DNA of 19,895 nt from IMG/VR virus record IMGVR_UViG_3300045988_140849. One strand, 5' to 3'. A program made the translations under genes and the position numbers. The notes below the pieces were generated by a model. That model searched no databases. It saw nothing but the letters and a program-made list of their open reading frames with translations, and was not told the DNA's origin. The first letter of the stretch is position 1. The number at the start of each line of letters is the position of its first letter. The stretch is from a virus (lineage: Duplodnaviria; Heunggongvirae; Uroviricota; Caudoviricetes). This document shows, one piece after another, positions 1 through 13,124 of this stretch.

Positions 1-4
1 CTAA
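1..4. repeat. IS5 target-site duplication, left copy (CTAA)
   Basis: CTAA lies directly outside the IS5 left inverted repeat and an identical CTAA sits at 1201..1204 outside the right repeat. IS5 is known to duplicate a 4-bp YTAR target. Confidence 0.85.
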
Positions 5-1200
<1,196 letters not shown>

Positions 1201-1999: not shown

Positions 2000-3013
2000 T
2001 TACTCTACTGTGGACACTGTGTGGACACTCTCAACCTCAGTACCACCTCTTAGCGGATTAAGAGAAATGGCGTCCTGAAGGTACTCTGGCGCAAAATGAG
2101 CGTAAACCATAGTTTGCTCAATCCGCGTGTGACCTAGTATCCGTTGTAGCGTGATAATACTTCCTCCATTAATCATGAAATGAGTGGCAAAGCTGTGCCT
2201 TAGTGCATGTGTGGCTTGCCCCATTGGCAAATCCGGTTTTATTGCTTTCATTGTTCGTCTGAAGCGAGGGTAATCAGCATCAGGGAATAAAAAACCTCGT
2301 TTGTTATCCGCGATCATTTTGGCAACAGCCTCTGAGATCGGGACGGTGCGTGGTTTGTTTGTTTTCGTTTTAACAAACGTGACGCGGTTATGGATGATAT
2401 TTTCTGCTTTCAAACGAGCTGCTTCTCCCCAACGTGCTCCAGTACTCAGGCAAAGAATCGCAATCTTTTTGTTGTCGCCGTCAAGAGCAGCAAGCAGTAA
2501 GGCAATTTCTTCCTGCGTGAGATAGCCTGTGTCTGGTTTTTCCTCCTTAAGCCTTTTTGTCCCTCTGATAGGGTGCTCACCAAAGAATAACTCCGCTTCA
2601 ATCAGGGCTGTAAACATGCCGCTAATACATGTTAAATCACGATTGATACTCGAAGGTTTAATACCCTGACTTCTTCGGGTGGCGCAGTACTGGCTGATAA
2701 GCGATTTCGTAATTTGAAATGCGCATGGGTCATTCGTTATTTTTGTGAAGATTTCAATTTTTCCAAGATTAGATTTCCCATGCTCTTCGTGTTTACCCTT
2801 TAAATCCCACCAGATCTGTGTCAGCTCCGACAGACGTCGCTTGTCTGTTGGTTTTGATAGCCATTCTTTATTGTGGTGGTTGTACAACGTGTATTTCTCG
2901 AAAGCGACAGCTTCGCTTTTCTTATCAAACTTCCTACGGATGCGTTTTCCATTACGTCCAGTAGGGCGGATGTCCACTTCATATCGACCATCATCGAGTT
3001 TTTTGATTGCCAT
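2000..3013 (-). CDS. int: P2-type tyrosine integrase (337 aa)
   Basis: Starts MAIKKLDDGRYEVDIRP; C-terminal catalytic signature HALRHSF...LGHTRIEQTMVYAHF (R, H-x-x-R, Y). Located next to the att core and upstream of C in the same orientation, as in P2. Confidence 0.95.
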   Translation of the reverse strand: MAIKKLDDGRYEVDIRPTGRNGKRIRRKFDKKSEAVAFEKYTLYNHHNKEWLSKPTDKRRLSELTQIWWDLKGKHEEHGKSNLGKIEIFTKITNDPCAFQITKSLISQYCATRRSQGIKPSSINRDLTCISGMFTALIEAELFFGEHPIRGTKRLKEEKPDTGYLTQEEIALLLAALDGDNKKIAILCLSTGARWGEAARLKAENIIHNRVTFVKTKTNKPRTVPISEAVAKMIADNKRGFLFPDADYPRFRRTMKAIKPDLPMGQATHALRHSFATHFMINGGSIITLQRILGHTRIEQTMVYAHFAPEYLQDAISLNPLRGGTEVESVHTVSTVE

Positions 3014-3128: not shown

Positions 3129-3428
3129 TTAACCAGTCTTTTGACCGGAGTGGGGCGACGTTGTTTCGTTTTGCCCAAAGTGTGCGAGAGCGGGCGCAAT
3201 TTGCCCGGACTCAGGAGCGATCTGATTGGTCATGAACCATAAAGTGTATTTGGTGAATTGTGGGGTCTGCAGGATGTTCATCATGACATCTGTTGGAGGT
3301 GTTGAACGACCACTTTCATAGTAACTCAGCGTGCCATACGGAACCCCTGTTAAATCAGCAAGTTGTTGTCTGCTCAAATACTCTGATTTTCGCATTAAGA
3401 CTATCTTCTCGCTTATCGTGTTTGACAT
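3129..3428 (-). CDS. C: immunity repressor C (99 aa)
   Basis: Small helix-turn-helix protein (LSRQQLADLTGVPYGTLSYYESG) transcribed divergently from cox, in the P2 position; size fits P2 C. Confidence 0.9.
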   Translation of the reverse strand: MSNTISEKIVLMRKSEYLSRQQLADLTGVPYGTLSYYESGRSTPPTDVMMNILQTPQFTKYTLWFMTNQIAPESGQIAPALAHFGQNETTSPHSGQKTG

Positions 3429-3542: not shown

Positions 3543-3818
3543 ATGAGCAAGCAAGTAACACTCATGACTGATGCGATTCCTTATCAGGAGTTCGCAAAAC
3601 TAATAGGAAAATCGACAGGAGCGGTTCGTCGGATGATCGATAAAGGAAAGCTGCCTGTAATTGATATGACCGATCCACAATCAGCTTCAGGTCGTGCAGG
3701 TGAATATTGGGTATACCTTCCGGCATGGAATAACGGACTAAAACTGGCTTATGAAAGCCGCCCTAAAGAGATTCGTGACGGCTGGTTGATGTGGTTAGGT
3801 CTCGGTGAACCACGTTAA
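3543..3818 (+). CDS. cox: Cox (excision and switch control protein, 91 aa)
   Basis: First gene of the rightward early operon; small helix-turn-helix protein (QEFAKLIGKSTGAVRRMIDKGKLPV); size and position as in P2. Confidence 0.9.
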   Translation: MSKQVTLMTDAIPYQEFAKLIGKSTGAVRRMIDKGKLPVIDMTDPQSASGRAGEYWVYLPAWNNGLKLAYESRPKEIRDGWLMWLGLGEPR

Positions 3819-5310: not shown

Positions 5311-5582
5311 GTATTCGTATTGAAATTGGCGAACGTTATGTCGTTACCAGTGACAGCTTTCAGTTTATTCTCCACGAGAAAAAGAGAGCGGAAAGCGGTA
5401 AAAACGCCGGTCAGGAATGGCTGGCGGTGGTTGGTTATTATCCGAAATTAAGCCAGCTCGTTTCCGGCCTGATGCATCACGATATTCTGACCGGAAGCGC
5501 AAAGTCTTTTGCTGATTTAAACGCGCAGGTTGAGCAACTCAGCAGGCGTTGTTCAGAGGCTTTTGGCTCATATGGCCGTTAA
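5307..5582 (+). CDS. small early protein in the P2 orf83 position
   Basis: 91-aa ORF, start overlapping the orf82 stop; overlaps the start of A. Confidence 0.7.
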   Translation: MSIRIEIGERYVVTSDSFQFILHEKKRAESGKNAGQEWLAVVGYYPKLSQLVSGLMHHDILTGSAKSFADLNAQVEQLSRRCSEAFGSYGR

Positions 5583-7854
5583 AGCCTCCGGGCGTTTTGT
5601 CCCTCCTTCAGCATTTGCTGCAGGCACCGGTAAGGCGTTTACCGGTGCTTATGCATGGAACGCGCCACGCGAGGCCGTCGGGCGCGAAAGACCCCTTACA
5701 CGTGACGAGATGCGTCAGGTGCAAGGTGTTTTATCCACGATTAACCGCCTGCCTTACTTTTTGCGCTCGCTGTTTACTTCACGCTATGACTACATCCGGC
5801 GCAATAAAAGCCCGGTACACGGGTTTTATTTCCTCACATCCACTTTTCAGCGTCGTTTATGGCCGCGCATTGAGCGTGTGAATCAGCGCCATGAAATGAA
5901 CACCGACGCGTCGTTGCTGTTTCTGGCAGAGCGTGACCACTATGCGCGCCTGCCGGGAATGAATGACAAGGAGCTGAAAAAGTTTGCTGCCCGTATCTCA
6001 TCGCAGCTTTTCATGATGTATGAGGAACTCAGCGATGCCTGGGTGGATGCGCATGGCGAAAAAGAATCGCTGTTTACGGATGAGGCGCAGGCTCACCTCT
6101 ATGGTCATGTTGCTGGCGCTGCACGTGCTTTCAATATTTCCCCTCTCTACTGGAAAAAATACCGTAAAGGGCAGATGACCACGAGGCAGGCATATTCTGC
6201 CATTGCCCGTCTGTTTAACGATGAGTGGTGGACTCATCAGCTTAAAGGCCAGCGTATGCGCTGGCATGAAGCGTTACTGATAGCTGTCGGGGAGGTCAAT
6301 AAAGACCGTTCTCCTTATGCCAGTAAACACGCCATTCGTGATGTGCGTGCGCGCCGCCAGGCAAATCTGGAATTTCTTAAATCGTGTGACCTCGAAAACA
6401 GGGAAACCGGCGAGCGCATCGACCTTATCAGCAAGGTGATGGGCAGTATTTCTAATCCTGAAATTCGCCGGATGGAGCTGATGAACACCATCGCCGGTAT
6501 TGAGCGTTACGCCGCCGCAGAGGGTGATGTGGGGATGTTTATCACGCTGACCACGCCGTCAAAGTATCACCCGACACGTCAGGTCGGAAAAGGCGAAAAT
6601 AAAACCGTCCAGCTTAATCACGGCTGGAACGATGAGGCATTTAATCCAAAGGATGCGCAGCGTTATCTCTGCCGTATCTGGAGCCTGATGCGCACGGCAT
6701 TCAAGGATAATGATTTACAGGTCTACGGTTTGCGTGTCGTCGAACCACACCACGACGGAACGCCGCACTGGCATATGATGCTTTTTTGTAATCCACGCCA
6801 GCGTAACCAGATTATCGAAATCATGCGTCGCTATGCGCTCAAAGAGGATGGCGACGAAAGAGGAGCCGCGCGAAACCGTTTTCAGGCAAAACACCTTAAC
6901 CGGGGCGGTGCTGCGGGATATATCGCGAAATACATTTCAAAAAATATCGACGGCTATGCACTGGATGGTCAGCTCGATAACGATACCGGCAGACCGCTGA
7001 AAGATACTGCGGCGGCTGTTACCGCATGGGCGTCAACGTGGCGCATTCCGCAATTTAAAACGGTTGGCCTGCCGACAATGGGAGCTTACCGTGAGCTACG
7101 TAAATTGCCTCGCGGCGTCAGCATTGCTGATGAATTTGACGAACGCGTGGAGGCTGCACGCGCCGCCGCAGACAGTGGCGATTTTGCGCTGTATATCAGC
7201 GCGCAGGGCGGGGCAAATGTCCCGCGCGATTGTCAGACTGTCAGGGTCGCCCGTAGCCCGTCGGATGACGTTAACGAGTACGAGGAAGAAGTCGAGAGAG
7301 TGGTCGGCATTTACGCGCCGCATCTCGGCGCGCGTCATATTCATATCACCAGAACGACGGACTGGCGCATTGTGCCGAAAGTTCCGGTCGTGGAGCCTTT
7401 GACTTTAAAAAGCGGCATCGCCGCGCCTCGGAGTCCTGTCAATAACTGTGGAAAGCTCACTGGTGGTGATACTTCGTTACCGGCTCCCACGCCTTCTGAG
7501 CACGCCGCAGCAGTGCTTAATCTGGTTGATGACGGTGTTATCGAATGGAATGACCCGGAGGTCGTGAGGGCGCTCAGGGGCGCATTAAAACACGGCCTGA
7601 GAAGACCAAACCGTCAGCAAAGAAACGGAAGACCGTTAAAACCGCATGAAATAGCGCCATCGGCCAGACTGACCCGGTCGGAAAGAATGCAAATTACCCG
7701 TATCCGCGTTGACCTTGCTCAGAACGGTATCAGGCCGCAGCGATGGGAGCTTGAGGCGCTGGCGCGTGGCGCGATCGTAAATTACAACGGGAAAAAATTT
7801 ACGTATCCGGTCGCTGATGAGTGGAGTTGGTTTTATTGTTATTCAGAGCAATAA
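5572..7854 (+). CDS. A: rolling-circle replication initiator A (HUH endonuclease)
   Basis: About 760 aa from the ATG at 5572 (the ORF-track start at 5530 is TTG). HUH motif in TPHWHMMLF and tandem active-site tyrosines in GYIAKYISK; position as in P2. Confidence 0.9.
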   Translation: MAVKASGRFVPPSAFAAGTGKAFTGAYAWNAPREAVGRERPLTRDEMRQVQGVLSTINRLPYFLRSLFTSRYDYIRRNKSPVHGFYFLTSTFQRRLWPRIERVNQRHEMNTDASLLFLAERDHYARLPGMNDKELKKFAARISSQLFMMYEELSDAWVDAHGEKESLFTDEAQAHLYGHVAGAARAFNISPLYWKKYRKGQMTTRQAYSAIARLFNDEWWTHQLKGQRMRWHEALLIAVGEVNKDRSPYASKHAIRDVRARRQANLEFLKSCDLENRETGERIDLISKVMGSISNPEIRRMELMNTIAGIERYAAAEGDVGMFITLTTPSKYHPTRQVGKGENKTVQLNHGWNDEAFNPKDAQRYLCRIWSLMRTAFKDNDLQVYGLRVVEPHHDGTPHWHMMLFCNPRQRNQIIEIMRRYALKEDGDERGAARNRFQAKHLNRGGAAGYIAKYISKNIDGYALDGQLDNDTGRPLKDTAAAVTAWASTWRIPQFKTVGLPTMGAYRELRKLPRGVSIADEFDERVEAARAAADSGDFALYISAQGGANVPRDCQTVRVARSPSDDVNEYEEEVERVVGIYAPHLGARHIHITRTTDWRIVPKVPVVEPLTLKSGIAAPRSPVNNCGKLTGGDTSLPAPTPSEHAAAVLNLVDDGVIEWNDPEVVRALRGALKHGLRRPNRQQRNGRPLKPHEIAPSARLTRSERMQITRIRVDLAQNGIRPQRWELEALARGAIVNYNGKKFTYPVADEWSWFYCYSEQ

Positions 7855-7958: not shown

Positions 7959-7973
7959 AAAAAGGTGAAAACG

Positions 7974-9806
7974 ATGAATGATATCTTTGTTCTTACAAGG
8001 GAAGAGCTTGAAACACTAGATTATAGTGTTTTTATGCATATACCAGTTACATTTCATGCACATAAAATAAAAAAATATCTGGATGGGATTGCTGAGTCAT
8101 CAGAAAACCCCAAAGAGAAAAAATTAGCATCTCTTTTTGGTATGCTATATAGTTTCAATTTGCAAGTTGTTAACAACACTCCATCATTTGAACCCCAAAT
8201 GATTTGGGGTAATAAAAGATCAATATTGCCTGAAGATTTTGATGAGCAGGTGAATGACTGTCTTTTATATGTTTCTCAAAAAATAACCAATCCATTTTTG
8301 TTATCAAGAATATATGATGTTGTTTGGTGTAATAATCGGAAAAATAAAGACGTGGCAATTAAAGCAATTGATTCCTATGCTGAAATGCTAAATATAGCAA
8401 TTGAAAAGCTAATAATAAAAAACGAAAGCATAGATGAAAGTGATTTAAATTGCTTTATTTTTGCTCGTGATTATATTGCTAGGGCTTTGCACATTAATAA
8501 AATGGTCTACCCTAGAAAATCAGAAGGAAACATGGCGATTAAAAATGCCATTCATTCTCTTTATAGTATTCAAAATGAAAGATTAATCTTTGAAGGTTTC
8601 AATAATTTGACTTGGTTTATGGTGCGTGATTTTGATGGGTATAATCTGCAGTATGCGGAAAATGCTGAGAAGATGGCTGAGCAGCATAAAGATAAAAAAT
8701 ATTATGATGCTGTAAAATCACTTTATATGACAAGTGCAGTTATTTATGAAAAAAATGGTGAGTATGAACGTGCCAAGAGATGTAAACTGGCATCTGCAAA
8801 TATTACTATTAAAGTTGCAACAGAACGACCTGATAATATGGGTAAGATCTCTTGGTTAAGAACAGCTATCTCTGAATTAAGACAGTACGGTGGTGATAGC
8901 CAACAGATAGAAGATTTAAAGGAACAACTTGCTAATTTGAGAGAAGAAGTAAGGAGTGAATATGTCACTTTAAGCCATTCTATTGATATTAGTGACTTGG
9001 TTGCTGAAAGTGAAAAAAAACTGACGGGGCGTTCTTTGCCCGATATATTCAAAGTTTTAATGAGTGAAACACCGATTGAAAATATTGAAAGCATGAGGGA
9101 ACAAGTTTTAAGATTATCAGAAAAAAGTTTATTCTCTAGTTTTGTTGGAACAGAAATTAATGATGAGAGTGGGCGTAAGATATATACAATCCCGCCGTTG
9201 GATAATAAAAAAGATATGAGTGATGATGTTGTTATTGATCAATATCTAAGAAATTTCGAGATTACTCATAAGATTTTTGTAAACGGTGTCTTTGAACCTG
9301 CTCGCTATGTACTTTCTCAAGAACATGGCTTGACGTTGTCAACATTCGTTAAATTGGTTACAACTAGTCCAATTGTCAAGCCGGAGTTTAGGGAGATTTT
9401 TAATTTGGGCTTTTACAAATTATGGCAGGGAGATTACATCAGTGCAGCTTATCTTTTAATACCACAAATGGAAGGTATGGTTCGTTATTATTATGAGCTT
9501 AGTGGAAAGGATGCTACTAGATATTTGGATAAGGGATTAGAGGAGTCAACAAGTATTTCTCAGCTTCTAGATAAATGCAGAGATGATTTGGAAAGTATCT
9601 TTTCTAAAAATCTTGTTTTGACTATCGATGTTCTTTTTAACAGAAAGAGTGGGGCAACCTTAAGACATAAATTAGCACATGGTAATTTATATACTAATGC
9701 TTGTTACGATGAAACAACGACATATGCATGCATCCTGATTTTCTTTCTGTGTGCTTATCCTCTCCTACCATATTTTGATACTGTTTTTGAACAGGGCTCT
9801 GTTTGA
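7974..9806 (+). CDS. uncharacterized 610-aa cargo protein; candidate anti-phage/abortive-infection effector with C-terminal HEPN-like R-x4-H motif
   Basis: ATG at 7974 with AAAGGTGA 5 nt upstream; the ORF-track start at 7869 is TTG. About 25-35% G+C by eye versus about 50% for flanking A and Q. Occupies the tin/old slot. No Walker A motif. RHKLAH at residues 564..569. Confidence refers to the CDS being real; the function is a hypothesis. Confidence 0.85.
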   Translation: MNDIFVLTREELETLDYSVFMHIPVTFHAHKIKKYLDGIAESSENPKEKKLASLFGMLYSFNLQVVNNTPSFEPQMIWGNKRSILPEDFDEQVNDCLLYVSQKITNPFLLSRIYDVVWCNNRKNKDVAIKAIDSYAEMLNIAIEKLIIKNESIDESDLNCFIFARDYIARALHINKMVYPRKSEGNMAIKNAIHSLYSIQNERLIFEGFNNLTWFMVRDFDGYNLQYAENAEKMAEQHKDKKYYDAVKSLYMTSAVIYEKNGEYERAKRCKLASANITIKVATERPDNMGKISWLRTAISELRQYGGDSQQIEDLKEQLANLREEVRSEYVTLSHSIDISDLVAESEKKLTGRSLPDIFKVLMSETPIENIESMREQVLRLSEKSLFSSFVGTEINDESGRKIYTIPPLDNKKDMSDDVVIDQYLRNFEITHKIFVNGVFEPARYVLSQEHGLTLSTFVKLVTTSPIVKPEFREIFNLGFYKLWQGDYISAAYLLIPQMEGMVRYYYELSGKDATRYLDKGLEESTSISQLLDKCRDDLESIFSKNLVLTIDVLFNRKSGATLRHKLAHGNLYTNACYDETTTYACILIFFLCAYPLLPYFDTVFEQGSV

Positions 9807-9957: not shown

Positions 9958-9976
9958 GGCGAGGCGGGGAAAGCAC
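9958..9976. other. P2-type cohesive end (cos) sequence
   Basis: ggcgaggcggggaaagcac matches the 19-nt P2 cos sequence as recalled; it lies between the cargo locus and Q, as in P2. Confidence 0.8.
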
Positions 9977-10144: not shown

Positions 10145-11179
10145 TCAGCCGTTGTCAGTGTCCAGTGAGTAGTTTTTAAAGCGGATGACCTCCTGACCGA
10201 GCCAGCCGTTTATCTCACGGATCCTGTCCTGTAACGGGATAAGCTCATTGCGGACAAAGACCTTTGCCACTTTCTCAATATCACCCAGCGACCCGACGTT
10301 CTCCGGCTTGCCGCCCATCAACTGAAAGGGGATGCGGTGCGCGTCCAGCAGGTCTGCGGCACTGGCTTTTTTGATATTAAAAAAATCGTCCTTCGTCGCC
10401 ACTTCACTGAGCGGGATAATTTTAATGCCGTCGGCTTTTCCCTGTGGGGCATAGAGAAACAGGTTTTTAAAGTTGTTGCGGCCTTTCGACTTCACCATGT
10501 TTTCGCGAAGCATTTCGATATCGTTGCGATCCTGCACGGCATCAGTGACGTACATGATGTATCCGGCATGTGCGCCGTTTTCGTAATACTTGCGGCGGAA
10601 CAGCGTGGCCGACTCATTCAGCCAGGCAGAGTTAAGGGCGCTGAGATATTCCGGCAGGCCGTACAGCTCCTGATTAATATCGGGCTCCAGCAGGTGAAAC
10701 ACGGAACCGGGCGCGAAGGCTGTCGGCTCGTTGAAGGACGGCACCCACCAGTAAACATCCTCCTCCACGCCACGGCGGGTATATTTTGCCGGTGAGGTTT
10801 CCAGTCTGATGACCTTACCGGTGGTGCTGTAACGCTTTTCCAGAAACGCATTACCGAACACCAGAAAATCCAGCACAAAGCGGCTGAAATCCTGCTGGGA
10901 AAGCCACGGGTGCGGGATAAACGTTGAAGCCAGAATATTACGTTTGACGTAAATCGGTGAGCTGTGATGCACGGCAGCACGCAGACTTTTTGCCAGACCG
11001 GTAAAGCTGACCGGTGGCTCATACCATCTGCCGTTACTGATGCATTCGACGTAATCCAGAATGTCACGGCGGTCGAGTACCGGCACTGGCTCACCAAAGG
11101 TGAATGCCTCCATTTTCGGGGCGCTGGCGGTCATTTTTTTTGCCGCAGGTTGCGGTGTTTTCCCTTTTTTCTTGCTCAT
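10145..11179 (-). CDS. Q: portal protein Q (344 aa)
   Basis: Size, orientation and position next to cos match P2 Q; start overlaps the P stop (ATGA). Confidence 0.9.
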   Translation of the reverse strand: MSKKKGKTPQPAAKKMTASAPKMEAFTFGEPVPVLDRRDILDYVECISNGRWYEPPVSFTGLAKSLRAAVHHSSPIYVKRNILASTFIPHPWLSQQDFSRFVLDFLVFGNAFLEKRYSTTGKVIRLETSPAKYTRRGVEEDVYWWVPSFNEPTAFAPGSVFHLLEPDINQELYGLPEYLSALNSAWLNESATLFRRKYYENGAHAGYIMYVTDAVQDRNDIEMLRENMVKSKGRNNFKNLFLYAPQGKADGIKIIPLSEVATKDDFFNIKKASAADLLDAHRIPFQLMGGKPENVGSLGDIEKVAKVFVRNELIPLQDRIREINGWLGQEVIRFKNYSLDTDNG

Positions 11180-12951
11180 CAGTAAAACTCCAGAATGGTG
11201 GATGTCAGCGGGGTGCTGATACCGGCGGTGAGTGGCTCATTTAACAGGGCGTGCATGGTCGCCCAGGCGAGGTCGGCGTGGCTGGCTTCCTCGCTGCGGC
11301 TGGCCTCATACGTGGCGCTGCGTCCGCTGCTGGTCATGGTCTTGCGGATAGCCATAAACGAGCTGGTGATGTCGGTGGCGCTGACGTCATATTCCAGACA
11401 GCCACGGCGGATAACGTCTTTTGCCTTGAGCACCATTGCGGTTTTCATTTCCGGCGTGTAGCGGATGTCGCGCGCGGCGGGATAGAACGAGCGCACGAGC
11501 TGGAACACGCCGACACCGAGGCCGGTGGCATCAATACCGATGTATTCGACGTTGTATTTTTCGGTGAGTTTGCGGATGGATTCAGCCTGGGTGGCAAAGT
11601 CCATGCCTTTCCACTGGTGACGCTCAAGTATTCTGAATTTGCCACCGGCCACCACCGGCGGTGCCAGCACCACGCATCCGGCACTGTCGCCACGGTGTGA
11701 CGGGTCGTAACCAATCCAGACCGGGCGGGAGCCGAACGGATTCGCGGCAAACGGCGCATAGTCTTCCCATTCTTCCAGCGTGTCGACCATGCAGCGTTGC
11801 AGCTCCTCGAACGGGAATACCGACGCCTTGTCGTCAACAAATTCACACATGAACAGGTTTTTAAAATCGTCGGCGCTGTTTTCGCGTTTAAGCTGCTCAA
11901 TGTCGAACAGCGTGCAGCCACCTTTCAGGGCGTCCTCAATGGTGACAATCTGCCGCCACTGGCCGTCCGCACAGAGAAGCCCACCGGCAAGGGCGTTATG
12001 ACTGACGTCGATTTCCACGCGTTCGGCGGCGCTGGCGCGTCCCCGGTTGAACAGTTCACCTGACCAGAACGGGTAGGCGTCGTGCGCCAGCGTGGACGGG
12101 GTGGAGAAATAGGTCGAACGCAGGTGACTCTGTGAGGCCATACCTGATGCCACCTTACGCAGTACCTGAAAATTCGGGATCCAGAAAATCTCGTCGACGT
12201 ACAGGTCGCCGTTATGGCTCTGTGCGGTGTTGGAGTTGGTGCCGAGAAAAATCAGTTTTGCGCCGTTATTGCCCAGGACAATCGGGTCACCGGTCAGGTC
12301 AACGTCAACCAGCCGGGCAAAGGCGATGATGTATTCGCGGAACACATACGCCTGCGTTTTACTGGCCGACAGAAAAATCTGGTTATGACCGGTTTTCAGG
12401 GCGCGCAGCAGCGCCTCGCGGGAAAAATAAAACGTCGCGCCAATCTGGCGGGATTTCAGGATATCGCGGATGCGGTGCTCAAGCCCGGCGCGATACCAGT
12501 GCAACTGATAGTCGAAAGACTGCTCAAAGAAAATCTGCTCCAGCTTTTCGATGGCCTCGTCACTGAAAAAATTCTTTTTCGGTTTGCGACGCCCGCCTTT
12601 GTTGCGGTTAGCGACGTTCGGATTAAGGTCTGCCTCGTTGCCGGTCTGGCTGTAACGGTTGACCCGTGCCAGCCGTTCAATCTGGCGTCCGAGCAGGTCA
12701 ATTTCCTTGAAGTCACCGCCGGTTTTCTGCGGTTTGATGATGAGCTGGGTCAGCCGCGCTTCCAGACTCATTTCGACACGGCTGATGGGGGCAACGCTGT
12801 CCCAGCCGTCGCGCTGTTTCCAGCTCTGCACCGTCGGGCGTTTCATCTGCAACATGGCGGCAATCTGCGGCACGGAAAATCCCTGCCAGTACAGCAGCGC
12901 CGCCTGACGACGCGGGTCGTGTAAAAGAGTGGTGTCTGTGGTGATGGTCAT
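11179..12951 (-). CDS. P: terminase large (ATPase) subunit P
   Basis: 590 aa from the ATG at 12949..12951 (MTITTDTTLL) with a GAGG RBS; the ORF-track extension to 12981 was rejected. Position as in P2. Confidence 0.9.
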   Translation of the reverse strand: MTITTDTTLLHDPRRQAALLYWQGFSVPQIAAMLQMKRPTVQSWKQRDGWDSVAPISRVEMSLEARLTQLIIKPQKTGGDFKEIDLLGRQIERLARVNRYSQTGNEADLNPNVANRNKGGRRKPKKNFFSDEAIEKLEQIFFEQSFDYQLHWYRAGLEHRIRDILKSRQIGATFYFSREALLRALKTGHNQIFLSASKTQAYVFREYIIAFARLVDVDLTGDPIVLGNNGAKLIFLGTNSNTAQSHNGDLYVDEIFWIPNFQVLRKVASGMASQSHLRSTYFSTPSTLAHDAYPFWSGELFNRGRASAAERVEIDVSHNALAGGLLCADGQWRQIVTIEDALKGGCTLFDIEQLKRENSADDFKNLFMCEFVDDKASVFPFEELQRCMVDTLEEWEDYAPFAANPFGSRPVWIGYDPSHRGDSAGCVVLAPPVVAGGKFRILERHQWKGMDFATQAESIRKLTEKYNVEYIGIDATGLGVGVFQLVRSFYPAARDIRYTPEMKTAMVLKAKDVIRRGCLEYDVSATDITSSFMAIRKTMTSSGRSATYEASRSEEASHADLAWATMHALLNEPLTAGISTPLTSTILEFY

Positions 12952-13124
12952 GAATACCTCGCCGTGATGAATACACGGCAAGGCTACTGAGTCGCGCCCC
13001 GCGATTCGCTAAGGTACTGTTGTGTCAGTGATAAGCCATCCGGGACTGATGGCGGAGGATGCGCATCGTCGGGAAACTGATGCCGACATGTGACTCCTCT
13101 AATCACTATTCAGGACTCCTGACA
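12952..13124. promoter_or_regulatory. divergent late promoter region between P and O
   Basis: 173-bp divergent intergenic region, where P2 carries Ogr-dependent late promoters. Only a TGTTGT half-site (13018..13023) was seen; no full dyad was found by eye. Confidence 0.5.

Follow-up and report, generated by a model that had tools for sequence, protein, structure and literature searches.

The question raised by this locus is whether the single cargo gene of a P2-like prophage encodes a ribonuclease (RNase) of the HEPN type, and if so, whether this enzyme serves to exclude other phages. The window, i.e. the whole stretch of 19,895 nucleotides (nt) analyzed here (IMG/VR record IMGVR_UViG_3300045988_140849), is a P2-like (Peduovirus) prophage of E. 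coli. Between the replication gene gpA and the cohesive-end site cos it carries one gene, referred to here as the cargo gene, for a protein of 610 amino acids (aa). A first-pass annotation had pointed to the string R-H-K-L-A-H near its C-terminus as a possible HEPN active site. Our analysis indicates that the domain is very probably HEPN and that RHKLAH is very probably the catalytic motif of this HEPN-type RNase domain. That the cargo protein is an active RNase appears probable at a lower level of confidence, while for a biological role in anti-phage defence we see roughly an even chance.

Translation from the ATG at position 7974, in agreement with the RefSeq protein WP_076797585 ('DUF7380 domain-containing protein') of the same start and extent, places RHKLAH followed by G at residues 564-569 (window 9663-9680, plus strand), exactly where it had been reported. 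However, it must be mentioned that RHKLAH as a bare string does not exceed what chance would give. When the cargo protein was shuffled 20,000 times, the pattern R-x(4-6)-H occurred 1.48 times on average and at least once with a probability of 0.79; in the real protein it is present at three places, residues 426, 444 and 564. The stricter pattern R-[HND]-x3-H was found in the shuffles with a probability of 0.067, and together with E-x3-[KR] located 40-90 residues upstream with a probability of 0.026. What does exceed chance is the conservation of R564 and H569, not the string itself. In an alignment of 132 sequences, comprising the window's protein and 131 family representatives with 20-37% identity to it, three columns and no others are invariant, namely E500, R564 and H569 (132/132 each). 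R504 is kept in 131 and G570 in 127 sequences, and residue 565 is H in 104, N in 25 and D in 2 of them, hence H, N or D in 131 of 132. The two other strings, R426..H432 and R444..H451, were considered as motifs and rejected, since neither is conserved as a pair in this alignment. The HEPN active site has been described as Rx4-6H at the end of helix 3, with a polar N, D or H residue right after the R and a second acidic residue, usually within an Ex3[KR] motif, on helix 2 (Anantharaman et al., 2013, PMC3710099). The cargo protein displays R564-H565-K-L-A-H569 as well as E500-GMV-R504, the latter on a modelled helix of residues 488-509. The conservation of E500/R504 and of R564-[HND]-x3-H569 thus means that the published HEPN signature is present.

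The predicted structure agrees with this assignment. The model of the full-length protein, based on only 20 close homologues, was mediocre with a predicted local distance difference test score (pLDDT) of 76 and a predicted template modelling score (pTM) of 0.47, and the model of the C-terminal part (aa 405-610), based on 57 diverse sequences, reached a pLDDT of 93.5 and a pTM of 0.89. The latter model predicts the HEPN fold, an up-down bundle of four helices in which H2 and H3 are separated by an insert and the motif closes H3 (Table 1). Searches against known structures returned little. The best Foldseek match of the C-terminal model in the PDB was Csm6 with a non-significant E-value of 0.33, and modest structure scores of this kind are usual between HEPN families. 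Aligning the family profile with E. coli RnlA by hhalign gave a probability of 1.5%, a PDB sequence search with the C-terminal profile gave no match at E<=10, and with the full-length profile a weak TPR match only, so that no PDB chain is a sequence relative. The families which had been named as likely relatives, Abi2 (AbiD/AbiF), Swt1, RnlA/LsoA and ApeA, were rejected as well, because none of these Pfam families matched at E<=1 and PADLOC reported no ApeA or Abi match; the resemblance to them is at the level of the fold only. Hence, the initial reading as an HEPN-type RNase is supported by the invariant E500/R564/H569 and by the DUF4209 assignment described next, whereas the suggested family affiliations did not hold.

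The cargo protein belongs to DUF4209 (Pfam PF13910), and at the family level this sequence-based membership is secure. The match of the protein itself (aa 524-590) scores 20.0 bits for the full length and 21.2 bits for the domain at a cut-off of 22.3. It stays just under the cut-off because structural positions depart from the consensus (P469K, L507Y, P561A, W587I); every catalytic position is kept. All 57 aligned relatives match PF13910 with their C-terminal domains (best E 2.4e-13), and a tblastn search with the 142-aa domain from the window leads to annotated DUF4209 proteins that are encoded on plasmids of Natrinema (E 9e-18) and Mesorhizobium (E 6e-15) as well as of Aeromonas, Bacillus and Klebsiella. 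Anantharaman et al. (2013, PMC3710099) presented DUF4209 (the C6orf70 family) as a new HEPN family and predicted that it is active; in their account it is 'fused to TPR', is found more often in bacteria than in eukaryotes and occurs in operons related to restriction-modification. A profile search of 1.84 billion representatives yielded 3,360 clusters (defined at 50% identity) at E<=1e-3, nearly all of 600-640 aa and matching end-to-end, which are distributed across Proteobacteria, plasmids and prophages. Within the protein, the HEPN core is best conserved, with a mean pairwise identity of 39.6% compared to 25-27% elsewhere, and with 75% compared to 58-60% in the close clade. This pattern is consistent with a conserved effector that is linked to recognition modules which evolve faster.

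The recognition modules would be located upstream of the HEPN core (Table 1). The N-terminal part, in which no nameable feature had been noticed before, corresponds at aa 4-184 to the uncharacterised Pfam domain DUF7380 (E 4e-39). It contains a conserved patch (R82, D88, R112, D115, W118, A131, Y135 and R170, window 8217-8483), each residue of which is found in at least 90% of the 132 homologues; the patch may serve to bind a ligand or trigger, or it may form a second catalytic centre. The charged, coiled-coil-like segment reported upstream of the motif was found at residues 299-329 (ISELRQYGG...EVRSE) of the TPR-like middle region, and the absence of NTPase features could be confirmed, with neither a Walker A motif nor a Pfam NTPase domain in the cargo protein.

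Table 1. Coordinates of the cargo gene, of the parts of its protein and of the surrounding prophage features in the window
Feature	Window position (nt)	Residues	Strand	Basis
Integrase	2000-3013		-	
C-like repressor	3129-3428		-	
cox	3543-3818		+	
gpA replication endonuclease, left border of P2 hotspot	5572-7854		+	PHROG 91; RefSeq annotation
Shine-Dalgarno-like AGGTG	7963-7967		+	6 nt 5' of ATG at 7974; read from sequence
Cargo gene, DUF7380 / TPR-like / DUF4209 (HEPN) protein	7974-9806 (including stop codon)	610 aa	+	Open reading frame, start, RefSeq, PADLOC, PHROG
DUF7380 domain, proposed sensor/regulatory module	7983-8525	4-184	+	Pfam PF24098, E 4.2e-39, 134.6 bits vs cut-off 27
Helical-repeat (TPR-like) middle region, including charged helices 299-329	8526-9185	185-404	+	
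Two helices before HEPN core, conserved IEPAR and SPFVP motifs	9186-9380	405-469	+	Model secondary structure; consensus
Leading helices in C-terminal model		417-451, 455-464		
HEPN core	9381-9791	470-606	+	
H1		470-485		
H2, bears E500 and R504		488-509		
E500-G-M-V-R504, Ex3[KR] motif on H2, predicted accessory active-site element	9471-9485	500-504	+	
Insert, beta-hairpin and two short helices		510-544		
H3, kink at G560, RHKLAH closes H3		545-568		
R564-H-K-L-A-H569-G570, predicted Rx4H catalytic motif, end of H3	9663-9683	564-570	+	Conservation in 132 sequences
H4		580-606		
P2 cos core GGCGAGGCGGGGAAAGCAC, 19 nt, right side of hotspot	9958-9976		.	Exact match
Portal gpQ, right border of hotspot	10145-11179		-	PHROG 68, E 1.7e-176
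Terminase gpP	11179-12981		-	

The position of the gene within the prophage is equally clear. In the gpA-to-cos/portal interval the cargo gene is the only gene, with merely chance open reading frames of <=41 aa besides it between gpA and cos. It is the last gene before the packaging site, because the cohesive-end core GGCGAGGCGGGGAAAGCAC starts 150 nt past its stop codon; past the terminase gene the window continues with head and lysis genes. The GC content of the cargo gene is 33%, compared to 50% in the window and 54% in gpA. Scanning for promoters 5' of the gene gave weak matches only (14 compared to 8.6 +/- 3.1 expected), which is chance-like in AT-rich DNA. The protein is assigned to PHROG 5183, has no match in NCBIfam, and over nearly its full length (aa 7-598) matches the PADLOC hidden Markov models of the candidate single-gene system PDC-S39 with E-values of 1.9e-84 and 9.7e-84. 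An identical locus exists in 55 of 5,426 complete E. coli genomes and also in phage vB_EcoM-569R9, where the gene is annotated as 'DUF4209 domain-containing protein'.

Relatives of the gene are widespread. Scanning one genome per species with two peptide patterns detected a relative in 243 species, mostly Alpha- and Gammaproteobacteria, and about 62 of 72 loci have a full-length gene (about 610-690 aa). Among 102 immediate flanking proteins from about 60 loci, which represent 96 different Pfam families, no family occurs more than three times. They include phage integrases, helix-turn-helix regulators, RhuM, DUF4238, ResIII, KAP NTPase, a type I restriction R subunit, AbiJ, PifA, PDC-S05 and PDC-S23. 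The gene is, hence, a standalone module in variable, mobile and partly defence-rich surroundings. An HEPN-MNT or other type II toxin-antitoxin arrangement was rejected, since there is no partner gene between gpA and cos and no conserved neighbour among these flanking proteins.

In the viral contigs all 17 close copies sit between gpA and portal, even where gpA is only 36% identical, and in other P2-like phages this slot houses three distant alleles (26-32% identity). ORF612 of P2-EC46, which is 33% identical and located in the same slot, keeps E501-x3-R505 and R565-H-x3-H570-G. The remaining genome and viral loci have non-P2 contexts, and P2 gpA, portal or terminase was found near the gene in none of 80 sampled genome loci. 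Several contigs deserve separate mention. In IMGVR_UViG_2563366973_000012 (5898-7652 and 10659-11690) the cargo match ends at residue 585 and the distance to the downstream portal gene is about 3 kb instead of about 0.35 kb, pointing to an insertion in the 3' end of the cargo gene, by which HEPN helix 4 would be partly lost. The IMG/VR contigs L093-L099 carry cargo alleles of 54-56% identity in the same gpA-portal slot of P2-like phages, with gpA only 36-44% but portal and terminase 61-84% identical to those of the window, indicating that either the cargo or the replication module was exchanged between divergent peduoviruses. Finally, a large group of near-identical contigs (L111-L135) encodes a relative with about 30-31% identity to the C-terminal domain used as query, and P2 gpA, portal and terminase are absent from its context; hence, the family rides on at least one other prophage type too.

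The HEPN prediction for this gene is already published and implemented in PADLOC. Rousset et al. (2022) listed the cargo protein as P2-hotspot system #13 (Pfam DUF4209), present in 193 of 18,150 hotspot loci, and proteins of the ORF612 type as system #55. They cloned the gene as 'Putative HEPN' on plasmid pFR103. The insert opens with sequence of the window from shortly before the gene, and of the 399 residues shown for its protein, 4 are different. The phage panel used in MG1655 consisted of lambda, T4, P1, 186cIts, CLB_P2, LF82_P8, AL505_P2 and T7. Two observations from this study weigh against a defence function: pFR103 appears among the 'additional tested systems' (Table S2B) and is absent from the validated ones (Table S2A), and part of the cargo in P2 hotspots is not for defence, as exemplified by StbA partition systems and cytolethal distending toxin. 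The negative test with eight phages and the existence of such cargo are the reasons why we put the chances of an anti-phage role no higher than about even. In the literature searched we found no later validation of pFR103 or PDC-S39, the latter being mentioned only in lists of predicted systems, and no biochemistry on DUF4209, nor anything at all on DUF7380, on ERMARD as HEPN protein or on HEPN-TPR.

Taken as a whole, we lean towards the reading that the gene is a standalone three-part 'moron' in the gpA-cos (tin/old) hotspot, combining DUF7380, a TPR-like scaffold and a DUF4209 HEPN domain, which would act as an anti-phage RNase. By analogy with characterised HEPN RNases, the cargo protein would be made in the lysogen but kept inactive, and this fits the gene being clonable under its native promoter. 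A cue from a competitor phage might then be sensed by the faster-evolving DUF7380 and TPR-like scaffold, which could allow two HEPN domains to come together as the canonical dimer, in which their Rx4H motifs lie side by side. Paired in this way, they would form a metal-independent endoribonuclease cutting host and/or phage RNA, so that translation would stop and the infection be aborted. More tentatively, at somewhat below even, we suppose a working single-protein abortive-infection RNase, whose so far undescribed DUF7380 and TPR-like sensor recognises a phage trigger absent from the eight-phage panel.

The most serious alternative accepts a real and active HEPN RNase that serves the prophage itself and not the defence against other phages; it might process or regulate RNA in the P2 cycle, interfere with P4-type satellites, manipulate the host or have an addiction-like function. 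In its favour, no defence was recorded against the eight phages, StbA and cytolethal distending toxin are found in P2 hotspots, and predicted housekeeping roles in RNA decay have been assigned to eukaryotic DUF4209 proteins. However, a P2-specific role cannot explain the family because most of its members reside outside P2 phages, as illustrated by the 80 sampled genome loci. Moreover, the neighbourhoods are variable and mobile and contain defence genes, and an antitoxin-like partner is absent. Hence, we regard this alternative as unlikely, albeit worth keeping in mind.

It is improbable that the HEPN fold is non-catalytic and serves for regulation or for the binding of nucleotides, RNA or proteins, like the nucleotidyltransferase-associated HEPN or MtlR. 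Several HEPN families are indeed non-enzymatic (PMC3710099), catalysis in DUF4209 is a prediction from sequence, and no toxicity was noted when the gene was cloned. However, the HEPN families without catalysis are those that lost Rx4-6H (PMC3710099), whereas in the 132 divergent sequences no residue besides R, H and the accessory E is invariant, and the polar residue next to R conforms to the catalytic pattern.

Even less credit can be given to a membrane-anchored protein that acts at the membrane via a C-terminal transmembrane (TM) helix, as proposed for eukaryotic C6orf70, which is described with one TM. The stretch aa 583-605 (window 9720-9788) is hydrophobic (Kyte-Doolittle 1.78), and Phobius gave '1 TM' for the cargo protein (Rousset et al., 2022, Table S5B). 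However, the same residues form core helix 4 of the confidently modelled HEPN domain (pLDDT 93.5), only 6% of the family members are TM-like in hydrophobicity along this stretch, and residue 591 is R, H or K in 105 of 132 sequences. The transmembrane reading was therefore rejected; the stretch resembles a TM helix in this enterobacterial clade specifically, and the predicted helix is probably an artefact. Finally, that RHKLAH is a chance string in an all-helical non-HEPN protein is close to refuted by the conservation described above, despite its frequency in the shuffles (79% with at least one R-x4-6-H) and the lack of a significant HEPN match with Foldseek and hhalign.

Compared to the published predictions, the present analysis adds a quantitative case for the active site with the invariant E500/R564/H569 triad, a high-confidence HEPN model and arguments that the TM helix is probably spurious. 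If the protein is active, a widespread single-gene HEPN system with an unstudied sensor module would be added to the phage-defence repertoire. It would also give a first experimental handle for a biochemical test of the DUF4209 family, which was inherited by eukaryotes as ERMARD and includes the human ERMARD/C6orf70, likewise a predicted RNase.

Regarding known systems, PDC-S39, system #13 'DUF4209' and pFR103 'Putative HEPN' are the same gene as the cargo gene without structural difference; they are catalogue entries with a predicted function, and pFR103 stands outside the validated defence systems. The DUF4209/C6orf70 (ERMARD)-type HEPN proteins (PMC3710099) share with the cargo protein the Rx4H and Ex3R motifs, the TPR-like fusion and nearby restriction or defence genes, whereas the cargo protein carries the N-terminal DUF7380, is phage-borne and scores just below the Pfam threshold; unlike it, the eukaryotic prototype is a predicted endoplasmic reticulum membrane protein. 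RnlA/LsoA (RNase LS) are anti-T4 HEPN toxins, and for RnlA a metal-independent, motif-dependent endoribonuclease activity and the canonical dimer are established. RnlA activity needs this dimer, which juxtaposes two Rx4-6H motifs, and an upstream Glu positions the His. However, they have no detectable sequence relationship to the cargo protein, as the low hhalign probability indicates, and RnlA has TBP-like N-terminal domains and the dedicated antitoxin RnlB, while the cargo gene is without partner. In Csm6/Csx1, which are HEPN RNases of type III CRISPR systems, a CARF sensor binds cyclic oligoadenylate, whereas the cargo protein has neither a CARF domain nor a CRISPR context. ApeA (HEPN_Apea) from the P4 hotspots is, like the cargo protein, one large protein with a C-terminal HEPN effector encoded in a phage or satellite defence hotspot; it represents a different HEPN family, and unlike the cargo gene it has validated anti-phage activity. 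The old and tin genes of P2 encode unrelated proteins, Old being an ATPase-Toprim nuclease and Tin targeting Gp32 of T-even phages, but they occupy exactly the same slot from gpA to cos, and they are expressed from the prophage and exclude other phages, as we propose for the cargo gene.
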